Below, in pieces: positions 3,787 through 30,348 of a stretch of DNA of 64,000 bases. Within the stretch, counting starts at the first letter, position 1. Each line of letters opens with the position of its first letter. This stretch comes from Pseudomonadota bacterium (lineage in GTDB: Bacteria; Pseudomonadota; Gammaproteobacteria; UBA9214), in NCBI GenBank assembly GCA_039714975.1, contig JBDLIH010000006.1, forward strand, positions 9,325-73,324, read 5' to 3'. The position numbers were made by a program, and so were the translations under genes. The notes beneath the pieces were generated by a model, which was not told the origin of the DNA, made no database searches, and saw only the letters and a program-made list of their open reading frames with translations.

Positions 3787-4092
3787 CTAGAGCAGTTCCT
3801 TCTCGCGCGCCAGACCGGCATTGACGCGTTCTCTGAGTTCCTTGCCTGGCTTGAAATGCGGTACATGCTTCGCCGCCAGCGCAACAGATTCGCCGGTCTT
3901 CGGGTTTCTGCCGATGCGCGGCGGACGATAATGCAGGGAGAAACTGCCAAACCCCCTGATCTCAATCCGCTGCCCTGTTGCGAGTGCCCAGCTCATTTGC
4001 TCAAGCAGACTTTTGACTGCCAACTCAACATCCTTTTGATTCAGATGTCCGTTTTTAGCCGCAAGTATCTCGATCAATTCAGACTTTGTCAT
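3787..4092 (-). CDS. ihfB: Integration host factor subunit beta
   Basis: MTKSELIE...[46 protein letters not shown]; follows rpsA. Confidence 0.97.
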
Positions 4093-4172
4093 TTTATCCA
4101 CCAACCCGGATGAAAGTTTCCGTTCCAGTCAAAATCCGACGAATAAGCCATTATCCCTGATACGTCGAATGA

Positions 4173-5849
4173 CTAACCCTCGTCCCCGTTCATGTGCTGC
4201 TTGAGCACATCCCCAAGATTTGTTGTTGCTTCTGCAGAAGTTGAACCATAGTCCTGCACCATGGCCGCTTCATCCGCACTGTCCTTTGCCTTGACGGACA
4301 ACATGATGGCGCGGCTCTTTCGGTCGACTCCCATGAATTTGGCCTCGACTTCATCGCCGACATTCAGGATTGTGCGTGCATCTTCAATCCGGTCACGGGA
4401 CAGCTCTGACGCACGCAAGGTGCCATCAATACCATCGCCCAGATCAATGATCGCCGCTTTCGCGTCCACTTCCTTGACAGTACCCTTAACGATGCTGCCC
4501 TTGCCGTGTTCAGCCACAAAATTCGAGAATGGATCCTTCTCCAGCTGCTTGATACCCAGTGAGATGCGTTCACGCTCCGGATCAACAGACAACACCACGG
4601 CTTCAATCTCGTCACCCTTGGAGAAACCCCGCACGGCCTCTTCCCCCGGTTCATGCCAGGAAATATCCGACAGGTGGATCAGGCCATCGATATCACCTTC
4701 CAAACCGATAAAAATACCGAAGTCGGTAATCGACTTGATGGTGCCCTTGACGACATCACCCTTGTTGCGGGTAGCACCGAACTCGTCCCATGGATTCGGG
4801 AAACACTGTTTGACACCCAGCGAGATGCGACGGCGTTCCTCGTCGATATCCAGTACCATCACCTCGACTTCCTGACCGATATGGACCACCTTGGAAGGAT
4901 TGACGTTCTTGTTGGTCCAGTCCATTTCCGAGACATGCACCAGGCCTTCAACACCCTCTTCAATCTCAACAAAGCAACCATAGTCGGCAATGTTTGTAAC
5001 CTTGCCGAACAGACGTGAGTTAGCCGGGTAACGGCGTGCCAGGTCTGCCCATGGATCCGTACCCAACTGCTTCATACCGAGGGATACACGGTTGCGCTCA
5101 CGATCAAACTTGAGCACCTTGACATCAATTTCTTCACCGACATTGACTATTTCAGACGGGTGCTTGACACGCTTCCACGCCATGTCGGTGATGTGCAGCA
5201 GACCATCGATGCCACCGAGGTCAACGAACACACCATAATCGGTCAGATTCTTGACAACACCCTTGACGGTGATGCCTTCCTGCAGACTTTCAAGCAGCGC
5301 CTCGCGCTCTGCACTGAATTCAGTTTCCACCACGGCTCGGCGTGAAACCACCACGTTATTGCGGCGCTGATCGAGCTTGATAACCTTGAATTCAAGTTCC
5401 TTGCCTTCCAGGAAGACCGGGTCACGAACCGGCCGTACATCGACCAGTGAACCTGGCAGAAAGGCACGAATCTCTTCAATATCAACAGTGAAACCACCCT
5501 TGACCTTGCCACTGATGAGTCCCTTGACAATATCTTCATTTTCAAACGCCTTCTCAAGGCGGCGCCAGACTTCGTCACGTTTTGCCTTTTCACGGGATAA
5601 CTTTGTTTCTCCAAAACCATCTTCAACGGCTTCCAGTGAAACTTCGACTTCATCGCCAACTTCTACTTCTACTTCACCGGAAGCATTCTTGAATTCATGT
5701 AAGGGAATAACACCTTCGGACTTCAATCCGGCGTTAACGATGACACTATCTGATTGAATATCAACAACTGTCCCGGTTACTACAGCACCCCGCGTTAAGG
5801 TCTGGTTAGCGAGGCTCTCTTCGAACATTTCAGCAAAACTTTCAGTCAT
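4173..5849 (-). CDS. rpsA: 30S ribosomal protein S1
   Basis: [12 protein letters not shown], repeated S1 domains ([30 protein letters not shown]), 558 aa. Confidence 0.99.
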
Positions 5850-6007
5850 GGGAAACTCTATCCTAGAACCGCAAAAGTACGGTCCATTGTCATTAGCTAC
5901 TGTATCTGGCGATACCGCAGGTCAGGTTAAAAGATTTGCCCGGGTAGTGACCCGGTCAAAGCGAAAACAGGGATTATACGTGTATCTGCTTAATTGTACA
6001 GGGATTT

Positions 6008-6694
6008 TCATATAGCCGCATGGACTGCTCCCAGCGCCTGCTGCAAGGTGGCTGCCTCATCCAAATCACTGTTGTCGATGATCAGCGCATCCGGTGCCGG
6101 CTTCAGGGGTGAGGCCTTGCGGGACATATCGCGCCGGTCCCGGGCCTCGACCTCCTCCACCAGCACCACAAGATCGACAGTTATTCCTTTATTTTTCAAC
6201 TGGTTATAACGCCTCACGGCGCGCACCTCGGGACGTGCCGTGAGGAATAATTTGAGCGTGGCATCGGGGAAGACCGCGGTACCCATGTCACGGCCATCCG
6301 CAATCAGGCCGGGGGGCTGGCGATAATGCCGCTGCCATGCCAACAGCGCCTCGCGTACGGCCGGCAGGACCGCTGCCTTCGAAGCCGCCTCGGCACACCC
6401 TTCCGTGCGCAGGGCATCGCCGACATCGACCCCGTCCAGCAGGATGGCCGGCTTGTCCGCTGTCGGCAGGTGATAGGTTTCGCTTAGCCGGCCAGCCAGT
6501 GTGATCAATGCCATTTCATCAGCAAGGTCAAGCGACGCCTGTAATGCCGCGTAGGCCAACAGGCGGTACAGGGCGCCACTGTCCAGATGGTGCCAGCCAA
6601 GCTCTGCTGCCAGCGCCTGGCTGATGGTGCCCTTGCCCGAACCACTGGGGCCGTCAACAGTGATCACCGGCACTTTTTTTATGGGGTCACCCAT
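6008..6694 (-). CDS. cmk: Cytidylate kinase
   Basis: ITVDGPSGSGKGT, LDSGALYR, ADGRDMGT motifs; aroA-cmk-rpsA order. Confidence 0.97.
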   Translation of the reverse strand: MGDPIKKVPVITVDGPSGSGKGTISQALAAELGWHHLDSGALYRLLAYAALQASLDLADEMALITLAGRLSETYHLPTADKPAILLDGVDVGDALRTEGCAEAASKAAVLPAVREALLAWQRHYRQPPGLIADGRDMGTAVFPDATLKLFLTARPEVRAVRRYNQLKNKGITVDLVVLVEEVEARDRRDMSRKASPLKPAPDALIIDNSDLDEAATLQQALGAVHAAI

Positions 6695-8010
6695 TAGGAG
6701 GCTTTGATCTTCAGGCCAACCCGGCTTGCCTGTTCGACAAAGCCGGGGAACGAGGTATTCACATTGGCGCAGTTGGTAATCTCTATGTCACCCTGTGCAC
6801 CTAGCGCGGCCATGGAAAACGCCATGGCAATGCGGTGGTCACCGTGGCTGTCCACGCAACCGCTACCGATCGTTCCTGCCTCTATAACCATACCGTCGGG
6901 TGTTGCTTGTGCATCGATGCCAAGTGTCTGCAGGCCGTCTGCCATCACCTGGATGCGATCGCTTTCCTTGACACGCAATTCTTCTGCCCCGGTTAATACA
7001 GTCCGGCCCTGTGCACAGGCCGCGGCGACAAAGATCACGGGAAACTCGTCGATTGCCAGTGGCACCAGTTCCGGCGGGATATCGATACCGTGCAATTGCG
7101 CAGACTTCACCTGCAGGTCGGCAACGGGTTCACCGCCAACGTCATGCATATTCGCCACCGTGATGTCGGCACCCATGCGCTGCAGGATATCGATGACGCC
7201 GGTGCGCGTCGGGTTCATGCCGACATGCTGCAACAGCAGGCTGGAGTCCGGTGCAATGCTGGCACCGACCAGGAAAAATGCAGCGGAGGAGATATCGGCC
7301 GGTACATCGATTGTTATTCCACGCAGGCGGTGTCCACCCTCGATACACACCCGGCCACCCTCACGCTGCACGGGGTAACCCATGCCGGTCAACATGCGTT
7401 CGGTATGATCGCGGGTGGGCGCCGGTTCCGAGACGCAGGTCGTGCCGTCAGCATACAGGCCCGCCAGCAGCAGGCTGGATTTTACCTGCGCACTGGCAAC
7501 CGGCATGTTGTAACTGATTCCTGTGAGTGTCGCGCCACCGTGTATCTGCAGCGGTGCTGTCCACATTGTCGTGGTATCAATATGTGCGCCCATGGAGACC
7601 AGCGGCCCGACTACCCGCTTCATTGGACGGCCGGACAAGGATGTATCACCCGTCAGCGTGGAGGAGAATGCCTGACCCGCCAGCAGACCGGACATCAGTC
7701 GCATGGACGTACCGGAATTACCGAGATACAACTCACCGGCTGGTGCTTGCAGCCCCCGCAGACCCACACCCTCGATCTCGACCTTGCCGTCATCCGGCCC
7801 GCTGATCCTGACGCCCATGGCACGAAACGCTGATAGCGTTGCAAGGCTGTCCTCACCTTCCAGAAAGCCACTGACCCTGGTTTTACCTTCGGCCAGGGAA
7901 CCCAGCATGATGGAGCGATGCGAAATGGATTTATCGCCGGGTACACGCACCTGGCCCGCGAGTTTTCCACCCGGCGTTACCTTGAACCGGATATCAGGGG
8001 CTTCAGACAT
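6694..8010 (-). CDS. aroA: 3-phosphoshikimate 1-carboxyvinyltransferase (class II EPSPS)
   Basis: PGDKSISHRS, GNSGTSMRL, SAQVKS, RDHTERML, LRVKESDRI, DHRIAM. Confidence 0.98.
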   Translation of the reverse strand: MSEAPDIRFKVTPGGKLAGQVRVPGDKSISHRSIMLGSLAEGKTRVSGFLEGEDSLATLSAFRAMGVRISGPDDGKVEIEGVGLRGLQAPAGELYLGNSGTSMRLMSGLLAGQAFSSTLTGDTSLSGRPMKRVVGPLVSMGAHIDTTTMWTAPLQIHGGATLTGISYNMPVASAQVKSSLLLAGLYADGTTCVSEPAPTRDHTERMLTGMGYPVQREGGRVCIEGGHRLRGITIDVPADISSAAFFLVGASIAPDSSLLLQHVGMNPTRTGVIDILQRMGADITVANMHDVGGEPVADLQVKSAQLHGIDIPPELVPLAIDEFPVIFVAAACAQGRTVLTGAEELRVKESDRIQVMADGLQTLGIDAQATPDGMVIEAGTIGSGCVDSHGDHRIAMAFSMAALGAQGDIEITNCANVNTSFPGFVEQASRVGLKIKAS

Positions 8011-8012
8011 GG

Positions 8013-8873
8013 TTATTTTTCAACATAGCGGTCACGTGCGGCCTTGGCGGAAGAAAAGATGTCCAGCAGTTGCTGCCCGTCATGGTTTCGCACTGCCTGG
8101 TTCAATGCCTGCAGGTCAACGATAAAATGTTCAATCATAAGCTGGATGGCATCGCCGTTGGCCAGACAAATATCACGCCACATGACCGGATCACTGGAGG
8201 CGATGCGGGTGAAGTCGCGGAAGCCGCCCGCGGCGTATTCAAACACTTCACTGGTATCATCCAGTTTCGCCAGGGTATCCACCAGCGAGTAAGCCAGCAC
8301 ATGCGGCAAATGGCTGGTTGCAGCCAGCACGGCGTCATGATGTACCGGGTCCATGGTCACGACCTGTGCACCGGTGGCTTTCCACATATCATGCACCCGA
8401 TCAGTTGCATTAGCAGACGTTTCCGGTAACGGCGTCAGAATGACGCGACGATCCCTGTAGAGGCCGGGGAAAGAAGCTTCGACCCCGCTTTGCTCGGTAC
8501 CGGCAATCGGGTGTCCCGGCACGAAGAAATCCGGCACGCTGCCAAATACCAGCTGCGCGGCCTCAATGACACTGCCCTTGGCACTGCCGGCATCGGTCAG
8601 CACGGCATGCTCGGCCAGCTGTCCCTTGATGGCACGGAATACACTCTCCATAGCACCCAGCGGCACGCACACTACCACCATGTCGGCACCGCTGACGGCC
8701 TGCGCCAGGTCGGTGTCGTAACGATCGATGATACCCAGATCAACCGCGGTTTGCAGGTTCCCGGTATTGCGACCGGCACCCACCACTTCCTGGCAGGCAC
8801 CCGCCTCCCGCAGCGCACGCGCCAGTGAGCCACCGATCAGGCCTACCCCGATAATACACAGTCGTTCAATCAC
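8013..8873 (-). CDS. tyrA: Prephenate/arogenate dehydrogenase
   Basis: Likely GTG start at 8873 (VIERLCIIGVGLIGGS), GHPIAGTE, HDAVLAATSHLPH, GFRDFTRIASS. Confidence 0.92.
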   Translation of the reverse strand: MIERLCIIGVGLIGGSLARALREAGACQEVVGAGRNTGNLQTAVDLGIIDRYDTDLAQAVSGADMVVVCVPLGAMESVFRAIKGQLAEHAVLTDAGSAKGSVIEAAQLVFGSVPDFFVPGHPIAGTEQSGVEASFPGLYRDRRVILTPLPETSANATDRVHDMWKATGAQVVTMDPVHHDAVLAATSHLPHVLAYSLVDTLAKLDDTSEVFEYAAGGFRDFTRIASSDPVMWRDICLANGDAIQLMIEHFIVDLQALNQAVRNHDGQQLLDIFSSAKAARDRYVEK

Positions 8874-10005
8874 GCAGCACTTGCTCCAGTGCACCCAGGA
8901 AGCGGGCGTTTTCTTCGCTATGCCCCACGGTGACGCGCAAATGACCGGGCATGCCATAGTTCGCTACCGGACGCACGATCACGCCCTTCTGCAACAGGGC
9001 CTCGAAGACATCAGCCCCGGACCGGCCGGTATCGACGGCCACAAAGTTGCCCACGGATTTTATATAAGAAAGACCCAGCGTCTCAAACCCCGTGGCCAGC
9101 TGTGCCATACCTTCCCGATTGGCCATGATACATCGCTGCAGGTAATCGACATCGTCCAGCGCGGCCAGTGCGGCGGCCTGTGCAACACTGTTGACATTGA
9201 AGGGTTGCCGTACCCGGTTCAAAAGGCCTGCCACATCGGGGTGTGAAAGAGCATAACCAACCCGCAGGCCGGCCAGTCCATAGGCCTTGGAGAATGTGCG
9301 GGTCACGATCAGGTTCGGGAAACGTGCCAGCCAGGTCGAGGCGTCCGGGTAATCCGGGTAGTCCGCCTGTTCGACATACTCGAAATAGGCCTCGTCGACG
9401 ACCACCATGACATGTGCCGGCAACGCCGCGATGAACTGCTCCAGCTCATCACTGCCCAGCCAGGCCCCGGTCGGGTTATTGGGGTTGGCGATAAACACCA
9501 GTCGTGTATCCGGTCCAACATGTTCAAGCATGGCCACCAGGTCATGGCCATAGGCCACTCCGCGACTGCCATCATGTGCCGGGGCAATACGTGCCGTTGC
9601 ACCCACCGCCTGCACGGTAATCGGATAGACCGCAAAGGCATGTTGTGAAAACACAGCCTCGTGATCCGGCGTCAGGAATACCCGCGCGATGAGATCGAGC
9701 ACATCATTGGAGCCATTTCCCAGCGTAATGCATGACGGATCGAGCCCGTGTTTCACGGCAAGCCGTTCGACCAGCAGATGGCCACTGCCTTCCGGATAGC
9801 GGGACAGATCCTGCAACGCCTCTGTAGCCGCTGCGATGGCTAACGGACTCGGACCAAACGGGTTTTCATTGGAGGCCAGTTTCACGGCATTGCTGATACC
9901 GTATTCACGTTCCAGTTCCGCTACCGGTTTGCCTGGCAGGTACGGTTGCAGTGCCTGCACTCCGGGAGCGGCGAGGTTGAGGAAATTATCGATGGATGCT
10001 GACAT
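8866..10005 (-). CDS. hisC: Histidinol-phosphate aminotransferase (HisC/HisHb)
   Basis: YLPGKP, KLASNENP, IANPNNPTG, VDEAYFEY, RTFSKAYGLAGLRVGY. Confidence 0.95.
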   Translation of the reverse strand: MSASIDNFLNLAAPGVQALQPYLPGKPVAELEREYGISNAVKLASNENPFGPSPLAIAAATEALQDLSRYPEGSGHLLVERLAVKHGLDPSCITLGNGSNDVLDLIARVFLTPDHEAVFSQHAFAVYPITVQAVGATARIAPAHDGSRGVAYGHDLVAMLEHVGPDTRLVFIANPNNPTGAWLGSDELEQFIAALPAHVMVVVDEAYFEYVEQADYPDYPDASTWLARFPNLIVTRTFSKAYGLAGLRVGYALSHPDVAGLLNRVRQPFNVNSVAQAAALAALDDVDYLQRCIMANREGMAQLATGFETLGLSYIKSVGNFVAVDTGRSGADVFEALLQKGVIVRPVANYGMPGHLRVTVGHSEENARFLGALEQVLRD

Positions 10006-22360: not shown

Positions 22361-22425
22361 TGTGAATATGTCACACTATTCGCGTGAATACCTCATACCT
22401 GCATGTGGCCTCCCATTACTATCCT
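22361..22425 (+). promoter_or_regulatory. Double-box promoter P1 (TGTGA-N5-TCACA, 7 nt, CGTGA-N5-TCATA, 22 nt, TATCCT)
   Basis: Same architecture at 23371, 30004 and 31107. Confidence 0.6.
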
Positions 22426-22431
22426 TAGGTT

Positions 22432-22561
22432 ATCAGGGATTGACGTCATGGATGACTGCCAGGGATGGCAACCCATGACTTTTGATTATGGAGGTAACTC
22501 TGCCGCATCTGCGAGCGAAGACCTGACCGGGAGCCGGTGCGGACACCTGAGGAATGAACAA
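22432..22561 (+). promoter_or_regulatory. GGA-hairpin-rich leader (putative CsrA/RsmA-binding RNA)
   Basis: Seven GGA in 130 nt, e.g. GTCA-TGGA-TGAC, TGCCA-GGGA-TGGCA, GGTG-CGGA-CACC. Confidence 0.55.
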
Positions 22562-23182
22562 ATGGGCAAGGAAGATCTCATCTTCTTCGCAGACAATGAC
22601 CCGCAGACGTCCAGTCAACACTGCGTAACACTTGATCGTGCAGGCTACACGGTCAAGCGCTGCCCGTTGAACATCCTCGCCAACACCCTCAACGGCACGC
22701 TGCAGGGTATTGTGGTACTGAACCTGGGCAGTAACGTGAAGGCCGGCCTGGAGACCCAGCAACAGCTGATTGCCGATGGCCGTGCGTGGCCGGTCATTTT
22801 TATCACCGACTGCGAGCAGATACCCGAGGCGGTCAAGGCCATGAAGGCAGGCGCCACGGACTTCCATGTGACATCCGTTTCTCCCGGGAAACTGCTGCAC
22901 AGCGTCCAGGAGGCCATGTTGCAACTGGATGCCGAGAAAGACCTGCAGTTACGTCGCACAGGCATAGAGCAACACTACATAAACCTGACCCGACGTGAGA
23001 AGGAAATCATGGAATACGTTACCAACGGGGTAACCAATCAGGACACTGCGCAGCAACTGGGTCTCAGTATGCGCACCATTGAGGTGCATCGCTCACGGAT
23101 TATGGAAAAAATGGGGGCAAGGTGCCTGGCCGATCTGACACGCATGGTCGATCTGTGCAGACTGTGCAGCAGCAATCACTGA
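22562..23182 (+). CDS. FixJ/LuxR-family transcriptional regulator with degenerate receiver domain
   Basis: PVIFIT...AVKAMKAGATDF receiver-like region; LTRREKEIM..V.NG.TN...A.QLGLS.RTIEVHRSRIMEKM LuxR HTH; start 22562 chosen over the upstream ATG at 22403. Confidence 0.85.
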   Translation: MGKEDLIFFADNDPQTSSQHCVTLDRAGYTVKRCPLNILANTLNGTLQGIVVLNLGSNVKAGLETQQQLIADGRAWPVIFITDCEQIPEAVKAMKAGATDFHVTSVSPGKLLHSVQEAMLQLDAEKDLQLRRTGIEQHYINLTRREKEIMEYVTNGVTNQDTAQQLGLSMRTIEVHRSRIMEKMGARCLADLTRMVDLCRLCSSNH

Positions 23183-23472: not shown

Positions 23473-23715
23473 ATGGCTATAGCGAATAGAGATGTCGAAA
23501 TAATATTGCATGTTGACGAAACGCTGGGGGTATCCCGCCGCAATGATCTGACCAATGCATTAAAGAGCAAGGCCGGTATCAGATCGGCAGAATTCTGCCC
23601 GTTACGCTACCACCTGATGCTGGTCAGCTATGATCGGGACAACCTGACATCACAGGACATCCTGCATCAGGTCACCAACCAAAATGTGCATGCCCAGTTA
23701 ATCGGGCCCGTATAA
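23473..23715 (+). CDS. Small HMA/ferredoxin-fold-like hypothetical protein, paralog 1
   Basis: 80 aa, GAGG RBS, pattern LHV..AL...GI....F...HL..VSYD; clear similarity to ORF 30100. Confidence 0.75.
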   Translation: MAIANRDVEIILHVDETLGVSRRNDLTNALKSKAGIRSAEFCPLRYHLMLVSYDRDNLTSQDILHQVTNQNVHAQLIGPV

Positions 23716-23890: not shown

Positions 23891-26146
23891 ATGACCAGAC
23901 CGGCCAAGGCTCTCACCCTGGGTGTATTCACGGGCATCCTTGGCATCCTTGTCATCTGTATTCCCTTTATTCTCGATCTTGAAGAAACTGCCGGCCTCGA
24001 CTGGCTGTTTACCCTGCGTGGTCCCATCGCAGCACCGGATGATGTGGTTATCGTCAGCATCGACAAGGCATCAGCCGATGCACTCAATCTTTCGACTGAT
24101 CCGGGCAAGTGGCCACGCAGCTACCATGCCGAATTGCTGGGCAAACTGGCACAGGCCGGTGCCGCCGTGATCGTTCTGGACATCCACTTCAAGGAACAAC
24201 GCGAACCGGATGTGGACACCGCACTGGCACGGGCAATTGAAACATCAAACAGGGTGGTCCTGTTTGAGTACACAAAGAAAGACATCATCCGACTCTACGA
24301 TAAATCAGGTCACTACAGTGGTGAACTGATTGCACAGCGACTGATACGACCGGCAGAGCCAATCGCCTCGGCTCCACTGGCGCTCGCACCGTTTCCGTTA
24401 CCCGTCTTCCCGGTCAAGGTCAGCCAGTTCTGGGCATACACACCGGGTACCGGTGATCTGCCCACCGAGCCTGTCGTCGCCCTGCAGCTTTATAGCGCGG
24501 CACTCTACCCCGACTTCCTGGCACTGATTCGACAGACCGATCCGAAAGTCAGTCTGCCGCCAGTACAAACCACTGCCGGCCTGTTTGAGAAGTACGCCGT
24601 ACAGGAATCCATACAGGCACTACGCAAGCTGTTTACGGAACGTCCATCGTTGGCGAAACAAGTAGCCAACGCCCTCGATAGCGATACAAAGTTCGCTGAC
24701 AGCACAGGGCAACAGGCCTTGATGCACGCATTGATTGCAATGTACAGCAAGGCCGACAGCCGCTATCTCAATTTTTACGGGCCGCCACAGACCCTCACCA
24801 CGGTACCCTATGCGCAGGTACTAAGACCTGACATTACTTTACCCGGTAACAGTCAGGCGCCAGACCTGCAGGGCAAGACTGTTTTTGTTGGCTACTCAGA
24901 GCGATTGCAACCCGAACAACTGGACGAGTTCTACACGGTCTATTCACAGAATAATGGCCTGCACCTCAGTGGCGTGGAGATTGCTGCAACGGCATTTGCC
25001 AACCTGCTGAGAGACAATCCGGTGAGACCACTGCCCCTGCCGGCCCAGTTTCTTCTCCTGGCTGGCTGGGGCTTATTGCTTGGTTGCTGTGTGCGCCTGT
25101 TACCGGTCTTGCCTGCGGTGACAATCAGCACGGGCCTTACTGTGCTGTATCTGGTTACCAGTCAGCTGTTGTTCAACCAGCATACTATTTGGCTGCCGTT
25201 GCTTGTCCCCCTTTTGATACAAGGCCCGTTCGCCCTGTTTGCAGCTATCGTCTGGCACTACCATGAAGTTCGCCAGGAACGTGAAAGCATTCGCACGGCC
25301 TTTGGCCTGTACCTCCCGGCACCGGTTGTTGATGAACTGGCAAATGATCTCGCTAAAGGCAAATCAGAAAGCCAACTGGTCTATGGCACGTGTCTGTCCA
25401 CCGATGCCGACAAGTACACAACCCTGTCTGAAAGCATGGACCCTGCAGCACTGGCTGAGTTGATGAACGCGTATTACGAAACCCTGTTTGCACCCGTACG
25501 TCAATTTGAAGGCATTGTCTCCGACGTGGTGGGTGACGCCATGCTGGCGCTCTGGACTTCCAGCACACCAGAGTCCGAATTTCGTCGCAAGGCAATCCTC
25601 GCCGCACTGGCCATCAATGAAGCCGTCAGGCAACCCGAGGTAGGAAACATCCCGCATCATCTACCGACGCGTATCGGCCTGCATACCGGGCAGGTTATAC
25701 TCGGTAGCATCGGTGCCATTGATCATTTCGAATACCGGGCTGTCGGTGACATTGTCAATACCAGCACACGCATCCAGGGTATGAACACCTACCTGGGTAC
25801 CCGGGTGCTGCTAACAAAGCAAGTACTGGAGGGTATTGATGATTTTGTCACACGTGACGTTGGCTCGTTTGTACTGGCTGGTAAAACACAAGCACTCGTC
25901 ATTCACGAGTTACTCGGTCATCGCGATTCCGCAATTGAATCTTCGGTAGTCGAACAGCAACTGCTCTTCGCCGAAGGGCTAACCACCTTCCGCCAGGGCG
26001 ACTGGGCACAGGCGCAAAAGATTTTTACACGGCATTATGCAGTCAACAGGAATGATGGTGTATCACGCTACTATGTGAACCTGTGCCGCCATCAACAGCA
26101 ACCTGATGAGAACTGGAACGGTGCAATAAAACTGGACACAAAATAA
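23891..26146 (+). CDS. CHASE2-domain class III nucleotide cyclase
   Basis: N-terminal TM, CHASE2 (D.LF.LRG, VVIVSID, WPRSYHA, GAAVIVLDI.F, GKTVFVG, GVEI.A), three TMs, cyclase (TD..KYT.LSE, VGDA, RIGLHTG, VGDIVN..TRI), C-terminal helical tail. Confidence 0.93.
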   Translation: MTRPAKALTLGVFTGILGILVICIPFILDLEETAGLDWLFTLRGPIAAPDDVVIVSIDKASADALNLSTDPGKWPRSYHAELLGKLAQAGAAVIVLDIHFKEQREPDVDTALARAIETSNRVVLFEYTKKDIIRLYDKSGHYSGELIAQRLIRPAEPIASAPLALAPFPLPVFPVKVSQFWAYTPGTGDLPTEPVVALQLYSAALYPDFLALIRQTDPKVSLPPVQTTAGLFEKYAVQESIQALRKLFTERPSLAKQVANALDSDTKFADSTGQQALMHALIAMYSKADSRYLNFYGPPQTLTTVPYAQVLRPDITLPGNSQAPDLQGKTVFVGYSERLQPEQLDEFYTVYSQNNGLHLSGVEIAATAFANLLRDNPVRPLPLPAQFLLLAGWGLLLGCCVRLLPVLPAVTISTGLTVLYLVTSQLLFNQHTIWLPLLVPLLIQGPFALFAAIVWHYHEVRQERESIRTAFGLYLPAPVVDELANDLAKGKSESQLVYGTCLSTDADKYTTLSESMDPAALAELMNAYYETLFAPVRQFEGIVSDVVGDAMLALWTSSTPESEFRRKAILAALAINEAVRQPEVGNIPHHLPTRIGLHTGQVILGSIGAIDHFEYRAVGDIVNTSTRIQGMNTYLGTRVLLTKQVLEGIDDFVTRDVGSFVLAGKTQALVIHELLGHRDSAIESSVVEQQLLFAEGLTTFRQGDWAQAQKIFTRHYAVNRNDGVSRYYVNLCRHQQQPDENWNGAIKLDTK

Positions 26147-26305: not shown

Positions 26306-29300
26306 ATGCAAATCAACAAAGGCTTGTTGGTCATCATTTATTGCTGTACCTGCCTTGTCCTTACACTGTCTACTGTCACCGCCACGGCGGCTGAACGCTG
26401 CAATAATGCCGTAGCGCGCACCCTTTCGGTACAAGGATCGTTCGAGGTCCGCTATGCCGGCCAAAGCAACTGGCAAGCAGCCAAACTCAATGACCGCTTC
26501 TGTACCGGTGATGCCTTGCGCACCGGTCAGGACAGCCGAGTCGCCCTCATGCTGCTTCCGGAAACGGTTATCCGGCTGGACCAACTCAGTTCAATGGTAT
26601 TCACCCGACCGGATACCGATGCATCCCCCTCCTGGCTTGAATTACTCAAGGGCGCGGCCCATTTTATCAGCCGCGACCCGCGTGCGCTGCAGATCATCAC
26701 GCCGTTTGCCAACGCCGCCATTGAAGGTACCGAGTTCCTGGTACAGGTAGACGAACAACAGACCGGTGTCACCGTCTATGAAGGCAAGGTACTGGTCGGC
26801 AACAACAGTGGCAGTGTTGCCGTCACCAGCGGCAAACAGGCCATTGCGCAGGCAGGCCAGGCACCGGTGGCACAAGCCGTTGTTCACCCGCGTGACGCCG
26901 TGCAATGGACGCTGTACTACCCTCCGGTCATGCAGCAGGGCGACGCTACTACCCGGCAGGCCGCTGCGGCACTGGCTGTCGGACAGGTGGACAACGCCGA
27001 TGTACTGCTGGACCAGGCACTGGCAACCAATGCCGGCAACAGTGATGCCCTGGCGCTGAGGTCCATTATTGCCGTGACCCAGAACGACAAGGCGTCAGCA
27101 CTCACACTGGCCAACCAGGCGGTCAGTGCAGACCCCAACTCGGCTGCAGGCTACATTGCCCTGTCCTATGCACAACAGGCACACTTCGATCTGTCCGGTG
27201 CCCTGAACAGTCTGCAACAAGCGACCCAACACGAACCTGATAACGCGCTGGGCCAGGCACGGCTGGCAGAAATGTGGTTGTCCGTCGGCGACCTGGACAA
27301 GGGCCTTGCGGCAGCGGAGCAGGCACACGCTATTGACCCCAACCAGTCTCTTACACAGACGGTACTGGGTTTTTCCTACCTCACCAGAATAAAGATTCCG
27401 GAATCGCTGGATGCGTTCAATCGTGCCATCATGCTGGACCAGGCCGCCCCCCTGCCCAGACTCGGACTGGGACTGGCAAAGATCCGTAAAGGCGACTTGG
27501 AAGCCGGTCGTGAAGAGATTGAAATCGCCGTAATTCTCGACCCCGGCAACTCCCTGATCCGCAGCTATATGGGCAAGGCCTACTACGAAGAGAAGCGTGA
27601 CAAGCTGGCAGCAACCCAGTACGACATGGCCAAAGAGCTGGACCCCAACGACCCGACACCGTGGTACTACGATGCCATCCGCAAACAGACCGAAAACCGG
27701 CCGGTGGAGGCGCTGCACGATCTGCAGGAATCCATCAAGCTGAATGACAACCGCGCCGTGTACCGCTCAAGGCTGGAACTCGATGCCGACCTCGCCACCC
27801 GTAGCGCCAGCATCGCACGCATCTACAATGATCTCGGTTTTCAGCAACGCGCCCTGGTGGAAGGCTGGCAATCGGTGAATACAGACCCGGGTAATTTCTC
27901 CGCACACCGGCTATTGGCCGACAGTTACTCTGCCCTGCCCCGGCACGAGGTGGCCCGCGTCAGTGAGCTGTTACAGTCACAACTGCTGCAACCCATCAAC
28001 CTGAACCCGGTACAACCACAGCTGGCCGAAACCAACCTGTCCGTCCTCGACAATGCTGGGCCGTCAGACCCGGCCTTCCTGGAATTCAACCCGCTGTTTA
28101 CACGCAACCGCGTTGCACTGCAGCTCAACGGTGTCGGCGGCAGCAACAGCACCCGGGGCGATGACCTGGTGCTCAACGGCGTGCATAACCGCTGGTCCTG
28201 GAGTCTGGGCCAGTACCACTACCAGACCGACGGCTACCGTGACAACAATGATCAGAAGCGCAACATCTATAACCTGTTTGTGCAGGGCGCCCTGTCCCAC
28301 AAGACCAGCATACTGGGTGAGCTGCGTTACGCTGACGAGGACTTCGGCGACCTGAACCTGCGCTTTGCCGGTGATGACTTTGAACCCAACCAGCGCCACG
28401 ATGAAGAGCTAAAATCCGCCCGGGCCGGGCTGCGCCATGCGTTCAGCCCGCGTTCCGAACTCATCGCCACGCTGGTCTATGCCGACGGCGATAACTCCGC
28501 AACAGACCGGTTCGGTTTTGACTTCCCGCCGTTCTTCTTTGGCAACGAACTTGATCTCGGGATCTCGAGTGATGACAAGGGCTGGACGGGCGAACTGCAG
28601 CACCAGTTCCGTGCCGATAGCTACACCCTGATCAGCGGTATCGGCCACACCGATGCCGACCGGGAGGAAACCATCAGCCAGCAATATGCCTTCGAGTTCC
28701 CGCCATTTTTTGTCGATAGCACACAAAAGGATGATACCGACCTGCGCCAGTCCAATATCTACCTGTACTCACTGTTCGACCTGCCACACGACATTACCCT
28801 GACCGTCGGGGCCAGCGGCGATACCTTTGATAACGGCCGCATCGACAAGCAGCAGTTCAACCCGAAGCTGGGCGTCGAGTGGGATGCCACCACAGACACC
28901 ACGGTGCGCGCCGCCGCCTTCAGGACACTGCAACGGCTGACCAGCATCTCGCCCCAGACCATCGAACCCACCCAGGTGGCCGGTTTCAACCAGCTTTATG
29001 AAGGCGCGGACGGCGAACAGGCATGGCGTTATGGCCTTGCCCTGGATCACTCCTTCTCGAACAGCCTGTACGGCGGGGCAGAGTTCAGCTACCGTGATCT
29101 TGAGGTACCGAGTACCAGTATCACCACGGGTGAACTATCTGACGCCGACTGGAACGAACAACTGGCACGCGCCTACCTCTACTGGGCGCCGCATCCGCAA
29201 CTCGCCCTGAACGCCGAATACCAGTACGAACGCTTCGATCGCGACCCGGAATTTCCTGGCGTGGAGCAGATCAGCGACCTCAAGACCCACCGGCTGCCAC

Positions 29301-29623
29301 TGGGTGTCTCCTGGTTCTCGCCCGGCGGCCTGATCGGCAAACTCAGCACAACCTACGTGAACCAGGACGGTGAGTTCGGCCTCGGGTTAGCGGGTAATCA
29401 GACCGAGAGGGACAGTGACAATTTCTGGATCGTGGATGCGTCGCTTGGCTACCGTCTGCCAAAACGCTATGGCATTGTGTCACTGGGCGTGCTGAACCTG
29501 CTGGACGAGGAATTCAAGTTTCAGGATACCGACCCGGCACTGCCACAGATCGCGCCGGAACGCACGGTACTGCTCAAATTCACATTAGCCGTTGATTGGG
29601 AATCCGGTCATGCGGGCCAGTGA
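26306..29623 (+). CDS. FecR-TPR-TonB-dependent-receptor-like beta-barrel outer-membrane protein (NsrA-like architecture)
   Basis: Signal peptide, FecR (GDALRTG..SRV, ITPFANAAIEGTEF.V, VYEGKV.V), multiple TPRs, C-terminal amphipathic beta strands (NPKLG, VDASLGYRL, NLLD). Confidence 0.88.
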   Translation: MQINKGLLVIIYCCTCLVLTLSTVTATAAERCNNAVARTLSVQGSFEVRYAGQSNWQAAKLNDRFCTGDALRTGQDSRVALMLLPETVIRLDQLSSMVFTRPDTDASPSWLELLKGAAHFISRDPRALQIITPFANAAIEGTEFLVQVDEQQTGVTVYEGKVLVGNNSGSVAVTSGKQAIAQAGQAPVAQAVVHPRDAVQWTLYYPPVMQQGDATTRQAAAALAVGQVDNADVLLDQALATNAGNSDALALRSIIAVTQNDKASALTLANQAVSADPNSAAGYIALSYAQQAHFDLSGALNSLQQATQHEPDNALGQARLAEMWLSVGDLDKGLAAAEQAHAIDPNQSLTQTVLGFSYLTRIKIPESLDAFNRAIMLDQAAPLPRLGLGLAKIRKGDLEAGREEIEIAVILDPGNSLIRSYMGKAYYEEKRDKLAATQYDMAKELDPNDPTPWYYDAIRKQTENRPVEALHDLQESIKLNDNRAVYRSRLELDADLATRSASIARIYNDLGFQQRALVEGWQSVNTDPGNFSAHRLLADSYSALPRHEVARVSELLQSQLLQPINLNPVQPQLAETNLSVLDNAGPSDPAFLEFNPLFTRNRVALQLNGVGGSNSTRGDDLVLNGVHNRWSWSLGQYHYQTDGYRDNNDQKRNIYNLFVQGALSHKTSILGELRYADEDFGDLNLRFAGDDFEPNQRHDEELKSARAGLRHAFSPRSELIATLVYADGDNSATDRFGFDFPPFFFGNELDLGISSDDKGWTGELQHQFRADSYTLISGIGHTDADREETISQQYAFEFPPFFVDSTQKDDTDLRQSNIYLYSLFDLPHDITLTVGASGDTFDNGRIDKQQFNPKLGVEWDATTDTTVRAAAFRTLQRLTSISPQTIEPTQVAGFNQLYEGADGEQAWRYGLALDHSFSNSLYGGAEFSYRDLEVPSTSITTGELSDADWNEQLARAYLYWAPHPQLALNAEYQYERFDRDPEFPGVEQISDLKTHRLPLGVSWFSPGGLIGKLSTTYVNQDGEFGLGLAGNQTERDSDNFWIVDASLGYRLPKRYGIVSLGVLNLLDEEFKFQDTDPALPQIAPERTVLLKFTLAVDWESGHAGQ

Positions 29624-29662
29624 CGGATGTTTGGTAATAATAGTAAATACAAGGAGAACGTT

Positions 29663-29911
29663 ATGTCAGATGATAATACGATAAGCATTAATTTGAAATT
29701 TAACAAGAATCTGAAACTGAAGGAAATAGTGCACATATTCAAGGATAAAAACGGGAACGAGAAAAGCAAGAAAATAAAGGCGAAAAAGAAATTCAAAGTT
29801 GACTTCGACAAGGTCGATGCGATGTGCGATGTGACCCTCATAAGAGGCGAGATCGCTGGCGTGGACCCCTACTGCATCAAGGTTGGCGGGACGCTGTACT
29901 GTTTCCCGTAA
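29663..29911 (+). CDS. Small Lys-rich hypothetical protein with C-terminal Cys pair
   Basis: AAGGAG RBS, 82 aa, ends DPYCIKVGGTLYCFP; AT-rich relative to neighbours. Confidence 0.6.
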   Translation: MSDDNTISINLKFNKNLKLKEIVHIFKDKNGNEKSKKIKAKKKFKVDFDKVDAMCDVTLIRGEIAGVDPYCIKVGGTLYCFP

Positions 29912-30099: not shown

Positions 30100-30348
30100 A
30101 TGGGAATCGTACAATTTCACAGCAAGCAATCAGACCTGGTGTTGCACGTAAACGACCAGGTAGGTGATGTACAACAGCGTGACATTGAATCAGCACTTGA
30201 GGAAAACCCCGGTGTTGTTAATGTGGAATTTACAGAAAACCGTCCGCGCCTGATTCACGTCAGCTATGATCAGGATGAAACAAGCTACATTGAAACTCTT
30301 GAGCGACTTTGCAGCCAGAACGTGCACGCGCAGCATATGGGTGACTGA
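30100..30348 (+). CDS. Small HMA/ferredoxin-fold-like hypothetical protein, paralog 2
   Basis: 82 aa, GGGGAG RBS; shares LHV, AL...G, EF, VSYD.D, QNVHAQ..G with ORF 23473. Confidence 0.75.
   Translation: MGIVQFHSKQSDLVLHVNDQVGDVQQRDIESALEENPGVVNVEFTENRPRLIHVSYDQDETSYIETLERLCSQNVHAQHMGD

Follow-up and report, generated by a model that had tools for sequence, protein, structure and literature searches.

The stretch of DNA analysed here, referred to below as the window, comprises 64,000 nucleotides of contig JBDLIH010000006.1 (assembly GCA_039714975.1, positions 9,325 to 73,324 of the forward strand) from a gammaproteobacterium of the UBA9214 lineage. On its plus strand, at 23891..26146, lies an open reading frame (ORF) of 751 amino acids (P0001) in which Pfam and an AlphaFold2 model delimit a CHASE2 domain, a nucleotidyl cyclase domain of class III and a helical tail of about 85 residues. 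The CHASE2 domain occupies residues 25-398 (E 7.6e-35) and the cyclase domain (Guanylate_cyc, PF00211) residues 504-667, or nucleotides 25400..25891 (+), with an E-value of 2.2e-10 and a score of 40.8 bits against a curated cut-off of 21.9. Its best solved relatives are 6fht and 2w01 (both Cya2), bPAC and CyaB. The model, a monomer built from an alignment of 41 sequences (mean predicted local distance difference test score 86.5), places an N-terminal helix before a mixed alpha/beta CHASE2 domain, which is followed by three long helices, the cyclase fold and the helical tail. At the two positions where class III cyclases are known to recognise the base of their substrate the enzyme carries Asp and Arg, a pair that marks a deep clade, and its product is predicted to be probably other than cyclic AMP (cAMP), most likely cyclic GMP (cGMP).

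The catalytic apparatus was described as intact in a preliminary description of this DNA, which had singled out nucleotides 25382..25771 (codons 498-627 of the ORF), and closer inspection bears this out. The first metal-binding Asp, D505, opens the phosphate-loop motif D505-A-D-K-Y-T510 (25403..25420, +; STDADKYT in context), the second, D549 (25535..25537, +), stands in GDA, and the transition-state pair N623 and R627 (25757..25771, +) in VNTSTR. Both metal-binding residues and the Asn/Arg pair align with those of solved cyclases, and together with the PF00211 score they place the domain in class III. In the two sets of relatives described below D549 is invariant (120/120 and 151/151), and each of the four residues is conserved in at least 150 of the 151 more distant representatives. 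It can be said that all sequence features of an active class III cyclase are kept; activity itself is predicted.

The base pocket is another matter. In adenylate cyclases a Lys acts as hydrogen-bond donor at the first base-specifying position (site 1) and Asp or Thr occupies the second (site 2); guanylate cyclases have the acceptor Glu at site 1 and Cys, Ser, Gly and others at site 2. The columns were checked in two ways, by single-sequence HMMER alignments to solved cyclases and by a profile of 41 family members, with the same result. D545 (25523..25525, +) shares its column with the Lys that sets specificity in CyaB (3r5g), in bPAC (5m27) and in engineered 6fht, and with the Glu of Cya2 (2w01): G-I-V-S-D545-V-V-G-D549 corresponds to G-T-I-D-K-F-V-G-D in CyaB and to G-T-I-D-E-F-M-G-D in Cya2. 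R616 (25736..25738, +) falls in the column of Thr in CyaB and bPAC and of Gly in Cya2, with E-Y-R616-A-V-G set against D-Y-T-I-I-G, D-H-T-L-L-G and K-Y-G-V-V-G in CyaB, bPAC and Cya2 respectively. Both columns are flanked by invariant anchors, G548-D549 for the first and Y615, G619, N623 and R627 for the second. The lowest E-values among solved structures belong to 6fht (2.1e-13) and 2w01 (5.8e-13), both of them Cya2-derived chains. The earlier assignment of D545 to the Lys site and of R616 to the Asp/Thr site is thus confirmed. The preliminary description had named a Lys at the specificity site as the observation that would speak against it; since the 41-member profile gives the same columns, Asp545 is what occupies this site at the level of sequence and profile alignment.

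Two further changes accompany the pair. His612 (25724..25726, +), four residues before site 2, replaces a basic residue that is Arg in CyaB, CyaK and Cya2 and Lys in bPAC, and D-[IVL]-x-G-F-T, the phosphate loop of relatives, is here D-A-D-K-Y-T. The pocket differs, as had been proposed, from that of a Lys plus Asp/Thr adenylate cyclase: class IIIa-c adenylate cyclases have Lys at site 1, the fourth residue ahead of the second metal Asp, where Asp545 is found, and Asp, Thr or Ser at site 2, where Arg616 is found. It departs equally from canonical guanylate cyclases, with Asp545 in the place of Glu and with an Arg616 that is missing among the site 2 residues listed for these enzymes, namely Cys, Ser, Thr, Gly, Ala and His (PMC4215837). 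Judged by its aligned residues, the enzyme fits neither the adenylate-, the canonical guanylate- nor the Pycsar-cyclase definition of the pocket.

Conservation of this pocket was followed in two sets of relatives. The close set (n=120) consists of the query and its 119 best matches, down to 45% identity in the domain. It contains D/R pairs (site 1/site 2) in 112 members and N/R in 8, with Arg at site 2 and both metal-binding Asp residues in all 120. The distant set (n=151) comprises the query and the best 150 of 808 proteins found at E <= 1e-30 when 1.84 billion representatives, clustered at 50% identity, were searched exhaustively. Here D/R accounts for 113 pairs, followed by N/R (13), D/T (6), Q/R (5), D/A (3), N/A (3) and G/T (2), and by D/S, E/R, Q/L, E/Q, D/G and R/T, one apiece. 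Site 1 is thereby D in 124, N in 16, Q in 6, E in 2, G in 2 and R in 1, and site 2 is Arg in 132. His is kept at the 612 position in 137 members, D505 and D549 in all 151, and N623 and R627 in 150 each. Among 80 metagenome loci site 1 is D in 52, N in 18, E in 5, G and Q in 2 each and A in 1, and Arg stands at site 2 in 62, a frequency that is biased because one of the DNA patterns used in the scan contains site 2 (Y[RTA]...), while none contains site 1. Lys at site 1 was found in none of the 120 close matches, 151 representatives or 80 metagenome loci. A sub-lineage with Glu/Gln (or Asp/Gln, Asn/Glu) and a D-V-E-K-Y-T loop was observed in the metagenome loci L138, L143, L144 and L177 (and L160, L185); it is the nearest approach of the clade to the canonical Glu of guanylate cyclases.

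Scores were bimodal when 401 genomes of the window's class were searched. Thirty-four genomes, G000 included, match at E <= 2.4e-43 and the next match lies at 2.8e-35, the dividing line between them having been chosen by the analyst. Four of the 34 (G039, G141, G308, G296) were counted only; 28 high-scoring loci were fetched and one of them (L082) was dropped, a run of N cutting its gene. The D/R sample used below (n=33) is made up of the window, the fetched high-scoring loci and five loci from named gammaproteobacterial metagenome-assembled genomes, and the K/T sample (n=32) of lower-scoring full-length matches taken in rank order and not at random; both samples were chosen by score. The pair is D/R in 33/33 of the former, with D-[AG]-x-x-[YF]-[TSA] loops throughout and His612 in 31, and K/T in 32/32 of the latter, with D-[IVL]-x-x-F-T loops throughout and Arg at position -4 in 31.

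The preliminary description had called for a tree of D/R-type cyclases and their neighbours. A maximum-likelihood tree of 107 cyclase domains was computed by a quick search without bootstrap after removal of ten trait columns; its 71 family rows are the 33 D/R sequences and 38 non-D/R variants from the 151-sequence set. All 71 fall into one clade, whose support by the Shimodaira-Hasegawa-like approximate likelihood ratio (SH-aLRT) is 100 and whose stem measures 1.23 substitutions per site. The K/S enzyme CyaK of Sinorhizobium (S.) meliloti and the K/T CHASE2 paralogue encoded in the window's genome group with the K/T cyclases. D505, D549, N623, R627 and K633 are common to at least 90% of the D/R clade and at least 90% of K/T CHASE2 cyclases. 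The groups differ at position -4 (His in 64/71 clade members versus Arg in 33/34 K/T cyclases) and in the loop consensus, which is D-A-x-x-Y-T in the family versus D-[IVL]-x-G-F-T in K/T CHASE2 cyclases. The D/R pair is the mark of a deep, well-supported clade and not a local oddity, and its conservation is far beyond chance. In these alignments the base pocket of the clade is rebuilt: Asp and Arg occupy sites 1 and 2, His stands at -4 and the loop is D-A-x-x-Y-T, a pattern that supports the view that the pocket change has been selected for across a large clade.

Directly downstream of the cyclase, at 26306..29623 (+), Pfam and BLASTP define a protein of 1105 amino acids with a signal peptide, a FecR domain and TPR repeats, followed at the C-terminus by an outer-membrane barrel. 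Three co-linear segments align in BLASTP with the FecR protein whose gene adjoins cyaK on pSymB of S. meliloti (best E 6e-18), and by analogy this NsrA-like protein is presumed to be the upstream sensor. A joint structure prediction of CHASE2 (25-385) and the NsrA-like periplasmic part (30-530) returned a score of 0.00, which, controls not having been run, speaks neither way. Directly after the NsrA-like gene comes a small ORF of 94 amino acids (29627..29911, +) with a Cys/Tyr-rich, hairpin-like motif at its C-terminus, for which no Pfam or NCBIfam family was matched. By eye, an ORF with a similar C-terminal motif (pattern T-[VIL]-x-[KR]-x-x-G-S-x-[CY]...G...Y...P/C) directly follows the NsrA-like gene in at least ten other loci (L001, L061, L063, L064, L069, L070, L072, L073, L079, L081), and the ORF is probably a fast-evolving small partner. 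The module is bracketed by two paralogous small proteins, one of 80 amino acids upstream of the cyclase (23473..23715, +) and one of 82 (30100..30348, +), which share 34% identity (BLASTP, E 8e-16) and both terminate in QNVHAQ-x-(I/M)G; they were matched by no Pfam or NCBIfam family and were seen only in the closest relatives (L001, L002).

Next comes a convergent gene (30407..31168, -), 4.3 kb downstream of the cyclase, for a Crp-type regulator of 253 amino acids with cyclic-nucleotide-binding (cNMP_binding) and HTH_Crp domains assigned by Pfam; it is the best cNMP_binding match in the genome. No enrichment of CAP-type DNA sites (TGTGA-N6-TCACA with at most two mismatches) was seen near the module, where 18 matches were found and 33.9 expected. 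On the other side, at 22403..23182 (+), lies a response regulator of the LuxR/FixJ type (Pfam GerE, E 8.3e-19; TtrR/FixJ-like in NCBIfam), whose receiver domain scores 25.8 bits where Pfam's cut-off is 30.2 and which has an N-terminal extension of about 55 residues. It adjoins the cyclase in the window and in three of the five closest relatives (L001, L003, L004), and is about 5 kb away in the more distant locus L057. Beyond an SDR gene, a protein of 747 amino acids (32206..34449, -) combines an N-terminal AAA_22 ATPase (E 1.1e-24) with a C-terminal TPR-like part; a link between it and the module is not apparent.

An NsrA-like gene adjoins the cyclase in 26 of the 33 D/R loci versus one of the 32 K/T loci, and a Crp gene (threshold E < 1e-20) in 22 versus three, usually divergent and 0-410 bp away in the D/R loci. 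NsrA-like neighbours occur in 56 of the 80 metagenome loci and in 36 of the 42 that reach at least 8 kb; Crp neighbours are found in 4/80 and 2/42 of them. Set against the 22/33 of the class loci, these counts make the Crp link a feature of the window's lineage and not of the whole clade.

The same genome encodes four class III cyclases including the present one. On contig C14 there is a canonical K/T CHASE2 paralogue of 754 amino acids, which is like the present enzyme in architecture, length and C-terminal helical tail and unlike it in having a K/T pair, a D-I-R-S-F-T loop and Arg at -4. Contig C19 carries a HAMP-linked K/T cyclase. The remaining one, on contig C78 (10527..11801, -), is a 425-amino-acid membrane cyclase of class IIIa type and has a further non-canonical pocket, in which Arg takes the place of Lys at site 1 (E-K-I-R-V-I-G-D) while site 2 is Asp. 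A canonical CRP with the T-S motif is also encoded (contig C89), and with K/T cyclases and a T-S CRP present in the same genome it is plausible that the module carries a signal separate from the cAMP pathway. Three genes for cyclic-nucleotide-binding proteins are clustered on contig C24 (about 4066..9495). One of their products is Crp-like, with an unusual F-G-D...R-V-A cassette and an L-A motif in the C-helix, and a congeneric genome (L096) has a near-identical motif next to a K/T cyclase. With this query the D/R cyclase was not found in the two other genomes of the window's genus, which are 98% and 100% complete (G367 and G212), the first of which gives a K/T-type match only, so the module looks patchy within the genus.

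The closest described parallel is the NsrA-CyaK-Clr system of S. meliloti (with CyaD1/CyaD2), where a CHASE2 cyclase likewise adjoins a FecR/TPR/barrel protein of about 1100-1200 residues and where the product is read by a Crp-family regulator (PMC13001267, PMC10127613). The gene at 26306..29623 occupies the NsrA position, and by analogy the proposed wiring, from presumed NsrA-like sensor through CHASE2 cyclase to candidate Crp receptor, follows the pathway in S. meliloti. The window differs in its reversed gene order and in its additional small proteins and LuxR-type regulator. CyaK itself shares only 25% identity with the present cyclase, has a Lys/Ser pair, a D-V-R-G-F-T loop and Arg at -4 and belongs to the K/T clade, and the pocket residues argue against simple identity with this cAMP-making enzyme. 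A plasmid match from S. medicae (H29) was set aside as another, longer cyclase. Canonical K/T CHASE2 cyclases lack an NsrA-like neighbour in 31 of the 32 sampled loci. The guanylate cyclase Cya2 of Synechocystis (2w01), whose full-length form presumably carries CHASE2 as well, resembles the present enzyme in its acidic site 1 and in a site 2 that is neither Asp nor Thr; it differs in its Glu/Gly pair, basic residue at -4 and D-L-R-G-F-T loop. The related 6fht is an engineered phytochrome fusion of the Cya2 cyclase domain with Lys at site 1 and was deposited as an adenylate cyclase.

The reading favoured here, held with a confidence somewhat short of even, is that of a GTP-preferring cyclase. 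The enzyme would be a catalytically competent class III cyclase and the inner-membrane output of an NsrA-type sensor that spans the envelope. The outer-membrane FecR/TPR/barrel protein would sense a signal and pass it, through a putative NsrA-CHASE2 contact, to the periplasmic CHASE2 domain, which in turn would control a presumed dimer of the cyclase in the cytoplasm. GTP would be the preferred substrate, perhaps with residual use of ATP. Asp545 may accept hydrogen bonds from N1-H and N2-H2 of guanine, like the Glu of guanylate cyclases, and Arg616 may donate to O6 or N7. In the window's lineage the neighbouring Crp-type regulator is a candidate receptor of the product. The Asp/Arg pair has the polarity of a guanylate cyclase at both sites, an acid at site 1 and a base at site 2, and some sub-lineages of the clade have Glu itself at site 1 (E/Q, E/R; 2/151 and 5/80). 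In a study of the RhGC complex with GTP, the bond of Glu to N1/N2 is the only direct base contact and the main determinant of GTP use, site 2 being variable (PMC7384201). PfPucC of the Pucsar system is reported in a preprint to make cGMP in vitro, and its AlphaFold 3 model puts Glu118 and Lys195 on the Watson-Crick edge of guanine at positions that the authors compare with K497/D566 (bioRxiv 10.64898/2026.08.12.744502). PfPucC is thus alike in a modelled acid and base on the guanine edge, at positions compared by its authors with sites 1 and 2, and differs in being soluble, defence-associated and of a different clade. The preliminary description had proposed a pocket for guanine or a pyrimidine; the acid at site 1, with the precedents of RhGC and PfPucC, favours guanine, and the pyrimidine half of the proposal loses ground, the pocket positions of BcPycC being unmatched.

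Literature searches yielded no published description of the Asp/Arg trait. Several observations weigh against a guanylate cyclase. In the literature covered, which did not include Ryu et al. 2015, no enzyme that combines a site 1 Asp with a site 2 Arg was found among the assayed cyclases. Asp is one methylene shorter than Glu. The guanine contacts of PfPucC belong to an AlphaFold 3 model in a preprint, and the equivalence of positions comes from the authors' comparison only. In bacteria the two-residue specificity code has known failures: XC_0250 forms cGMP although it has Ala at a substrate-specifying position and lacks the Asn/Arg pair (PMC3770947). Specificity is described in the RhGC work as arising in catalysis rather than in binding (PMC7384201). 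The regulator next door gives no help. The Crp proteins of the module carry an E...R-S-A cassette and L-T at the position of CAP T127-S128 (22/22), with Asp or Glu as the following residue in 21/22, and the cAMP receptor SYCRP1 has L-N here versus R-T in the cGMP receptor CgrA, where R-T is the cassette (PMC10187061). Clr has T-T and binds both cAMP and cGMP, XC_0249 has N-E and binds cGMP, and CRP* alleles include T127L/I (PMC2743635). Inference of the ligand from the motif of the neighbouring Crp was rejected, the published receptors showing that such motifs are not diagnostic. A test of covariation between cyclase sites and Crp motif was dropped for lack of power, as only 4 of the 80 metagenome loci have a Crp, a scarcity that itself counts against the favoured reading.

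It may also be, though we consider it unlikely, that the enzyme is still an adenylate cyclase in an ordinary cAMP pathway like NsrA-CyaK-Clr, the charge-swapped pair reading adenine in another orientation or the base contacts mattering little. Between them Asp and Arg provide an acceptor and a donor for adenine, which might in a flipped orientation still be recognised, Asp accepting from N6-H2 and Arg donating to N1 or N7, and a base flipped by 180 degrees is reported for a Ma1120 mutant. Adenylate cyclases of a non-Lys type exist in mycobacteria, with Asn/Asp or Gln/Asn pairs, and the Asn or Gln found at site 1 in 15-25% of the relatives recalls them. The studied module of this kind makes cAMP (PMC13001267), the neighbouring Crp has the standard E...R-S cassette with an L-x motif in the C-helix as in SYCRP1, and its best NCBIfam model is cAMP-CRP, albeit far below the cut-off (135 bits versus 266). 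Against this, Lys is absent from site 1 in all three sets of relatives, and the sampled K/T CHASE2 cyclases keep it in 32/32. The long, fully supported stem of the clade, the several other active-site changes, the Glu variants at site 1 and the presence of a canonical K/T CHASE2 paralogue in the same genome likewise tell against this view.

A pyrimidine cyclase making cyclic UMP (cUMP) or cyclic CMP, in which Asp545 pairs with Arg616 and narrows the pocket to a small base, is very improbable. Asp and Arg side chains do form the restrictive UTP pocket of BcPycC (7r65), a class III-like fold with Asp/Arg in base selection (PMC11224242), CTP-specific EaPycC has Arg at site 1 (PMC11224242; bioRxiv 10.64898/2026.08.12.744502), and the present domain matches PADLOC PycC models at E 7e-14, a match that reflects generic cyclase homology. 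The likeness is not positional, and the Pycsar analogy was rejected on this ground. The BcPycC residues lie elsewhere: Y50 is at -2 relative to the first metal Asp, while D94 and R97 are at -2 and +1 relative to the second. They map to S503, V547 and A550, all small residues, so that the pocket-narrowing positions are not used here. (The mapping runs through a shared alignment to CyaB 3r5g, the BcPycC sequence having been read from the PDB alignment of a homologue in a sampled genome.) Effectors and biology differ as well, since the neighbours are the NsrA-like gene, small ORFs and Crp with no PycTM or PycTIR effector adjacent, a context of envelope signalling and not of defence. The module Crp has Thr at the S128 position, which likens it to the purine receptors CAP and Clr, whereas cUMP-binding PycTIR has Asn there; by analogy this is weak evidence against cUMP. 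Improbable too, if a shade less so, is a domain that gives no conventional 3',5'-cyclic nucleotide signal, being a very weak or regulatory cyclase-like domain or using another nucleotide. Three changes at phosphate- or base-contacting positions occur together (loop Gly to x, Arg/Lys to His at 612, and the specificity pair), and a Crp partner is missing in most metagenome loci; yet among the best 150 of the 808 representatives hardly any variation is seen at the metal-binding Asp residues, the Asn/Arg pair or K633, a constancy that would be unexpected if the domain were dead.

Few bacterial systems are known to signal with cGMP, and the sequence rules for the product of a bacterial cyclase are weak. 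The clade described here offers handles for study: a clear-cut signature in at least 150 inspected representatives (50% clustering, best of 808 at E <= 1e-30), a canonical paralogue in the same genome and, in some lineages, a cognate regulator next door. Whether the outcome reveals a widespread family of receptor guanylate cyclases or establishes Asp/Arg as another reader of adenine, thousands of "adenylate/guanylate cyclase" genes would be better annotated for it. More tentatively than for the single enzyme, we suggest that D/R (N/R, E/Q) CHASE2 cyclases may form a large, unrecognised family of bacterial receptor guanylate, or other non-cAMP, cyclases. If this is true, cGMP signalling driven by NsrA-type sensors of the outer membrane would be a common trait among environmental proteobacteria, and the window's lineage would read the product with a dedicated Crp that has the L-T motif in its C-helix and works beside canonical cAMP-CRP.

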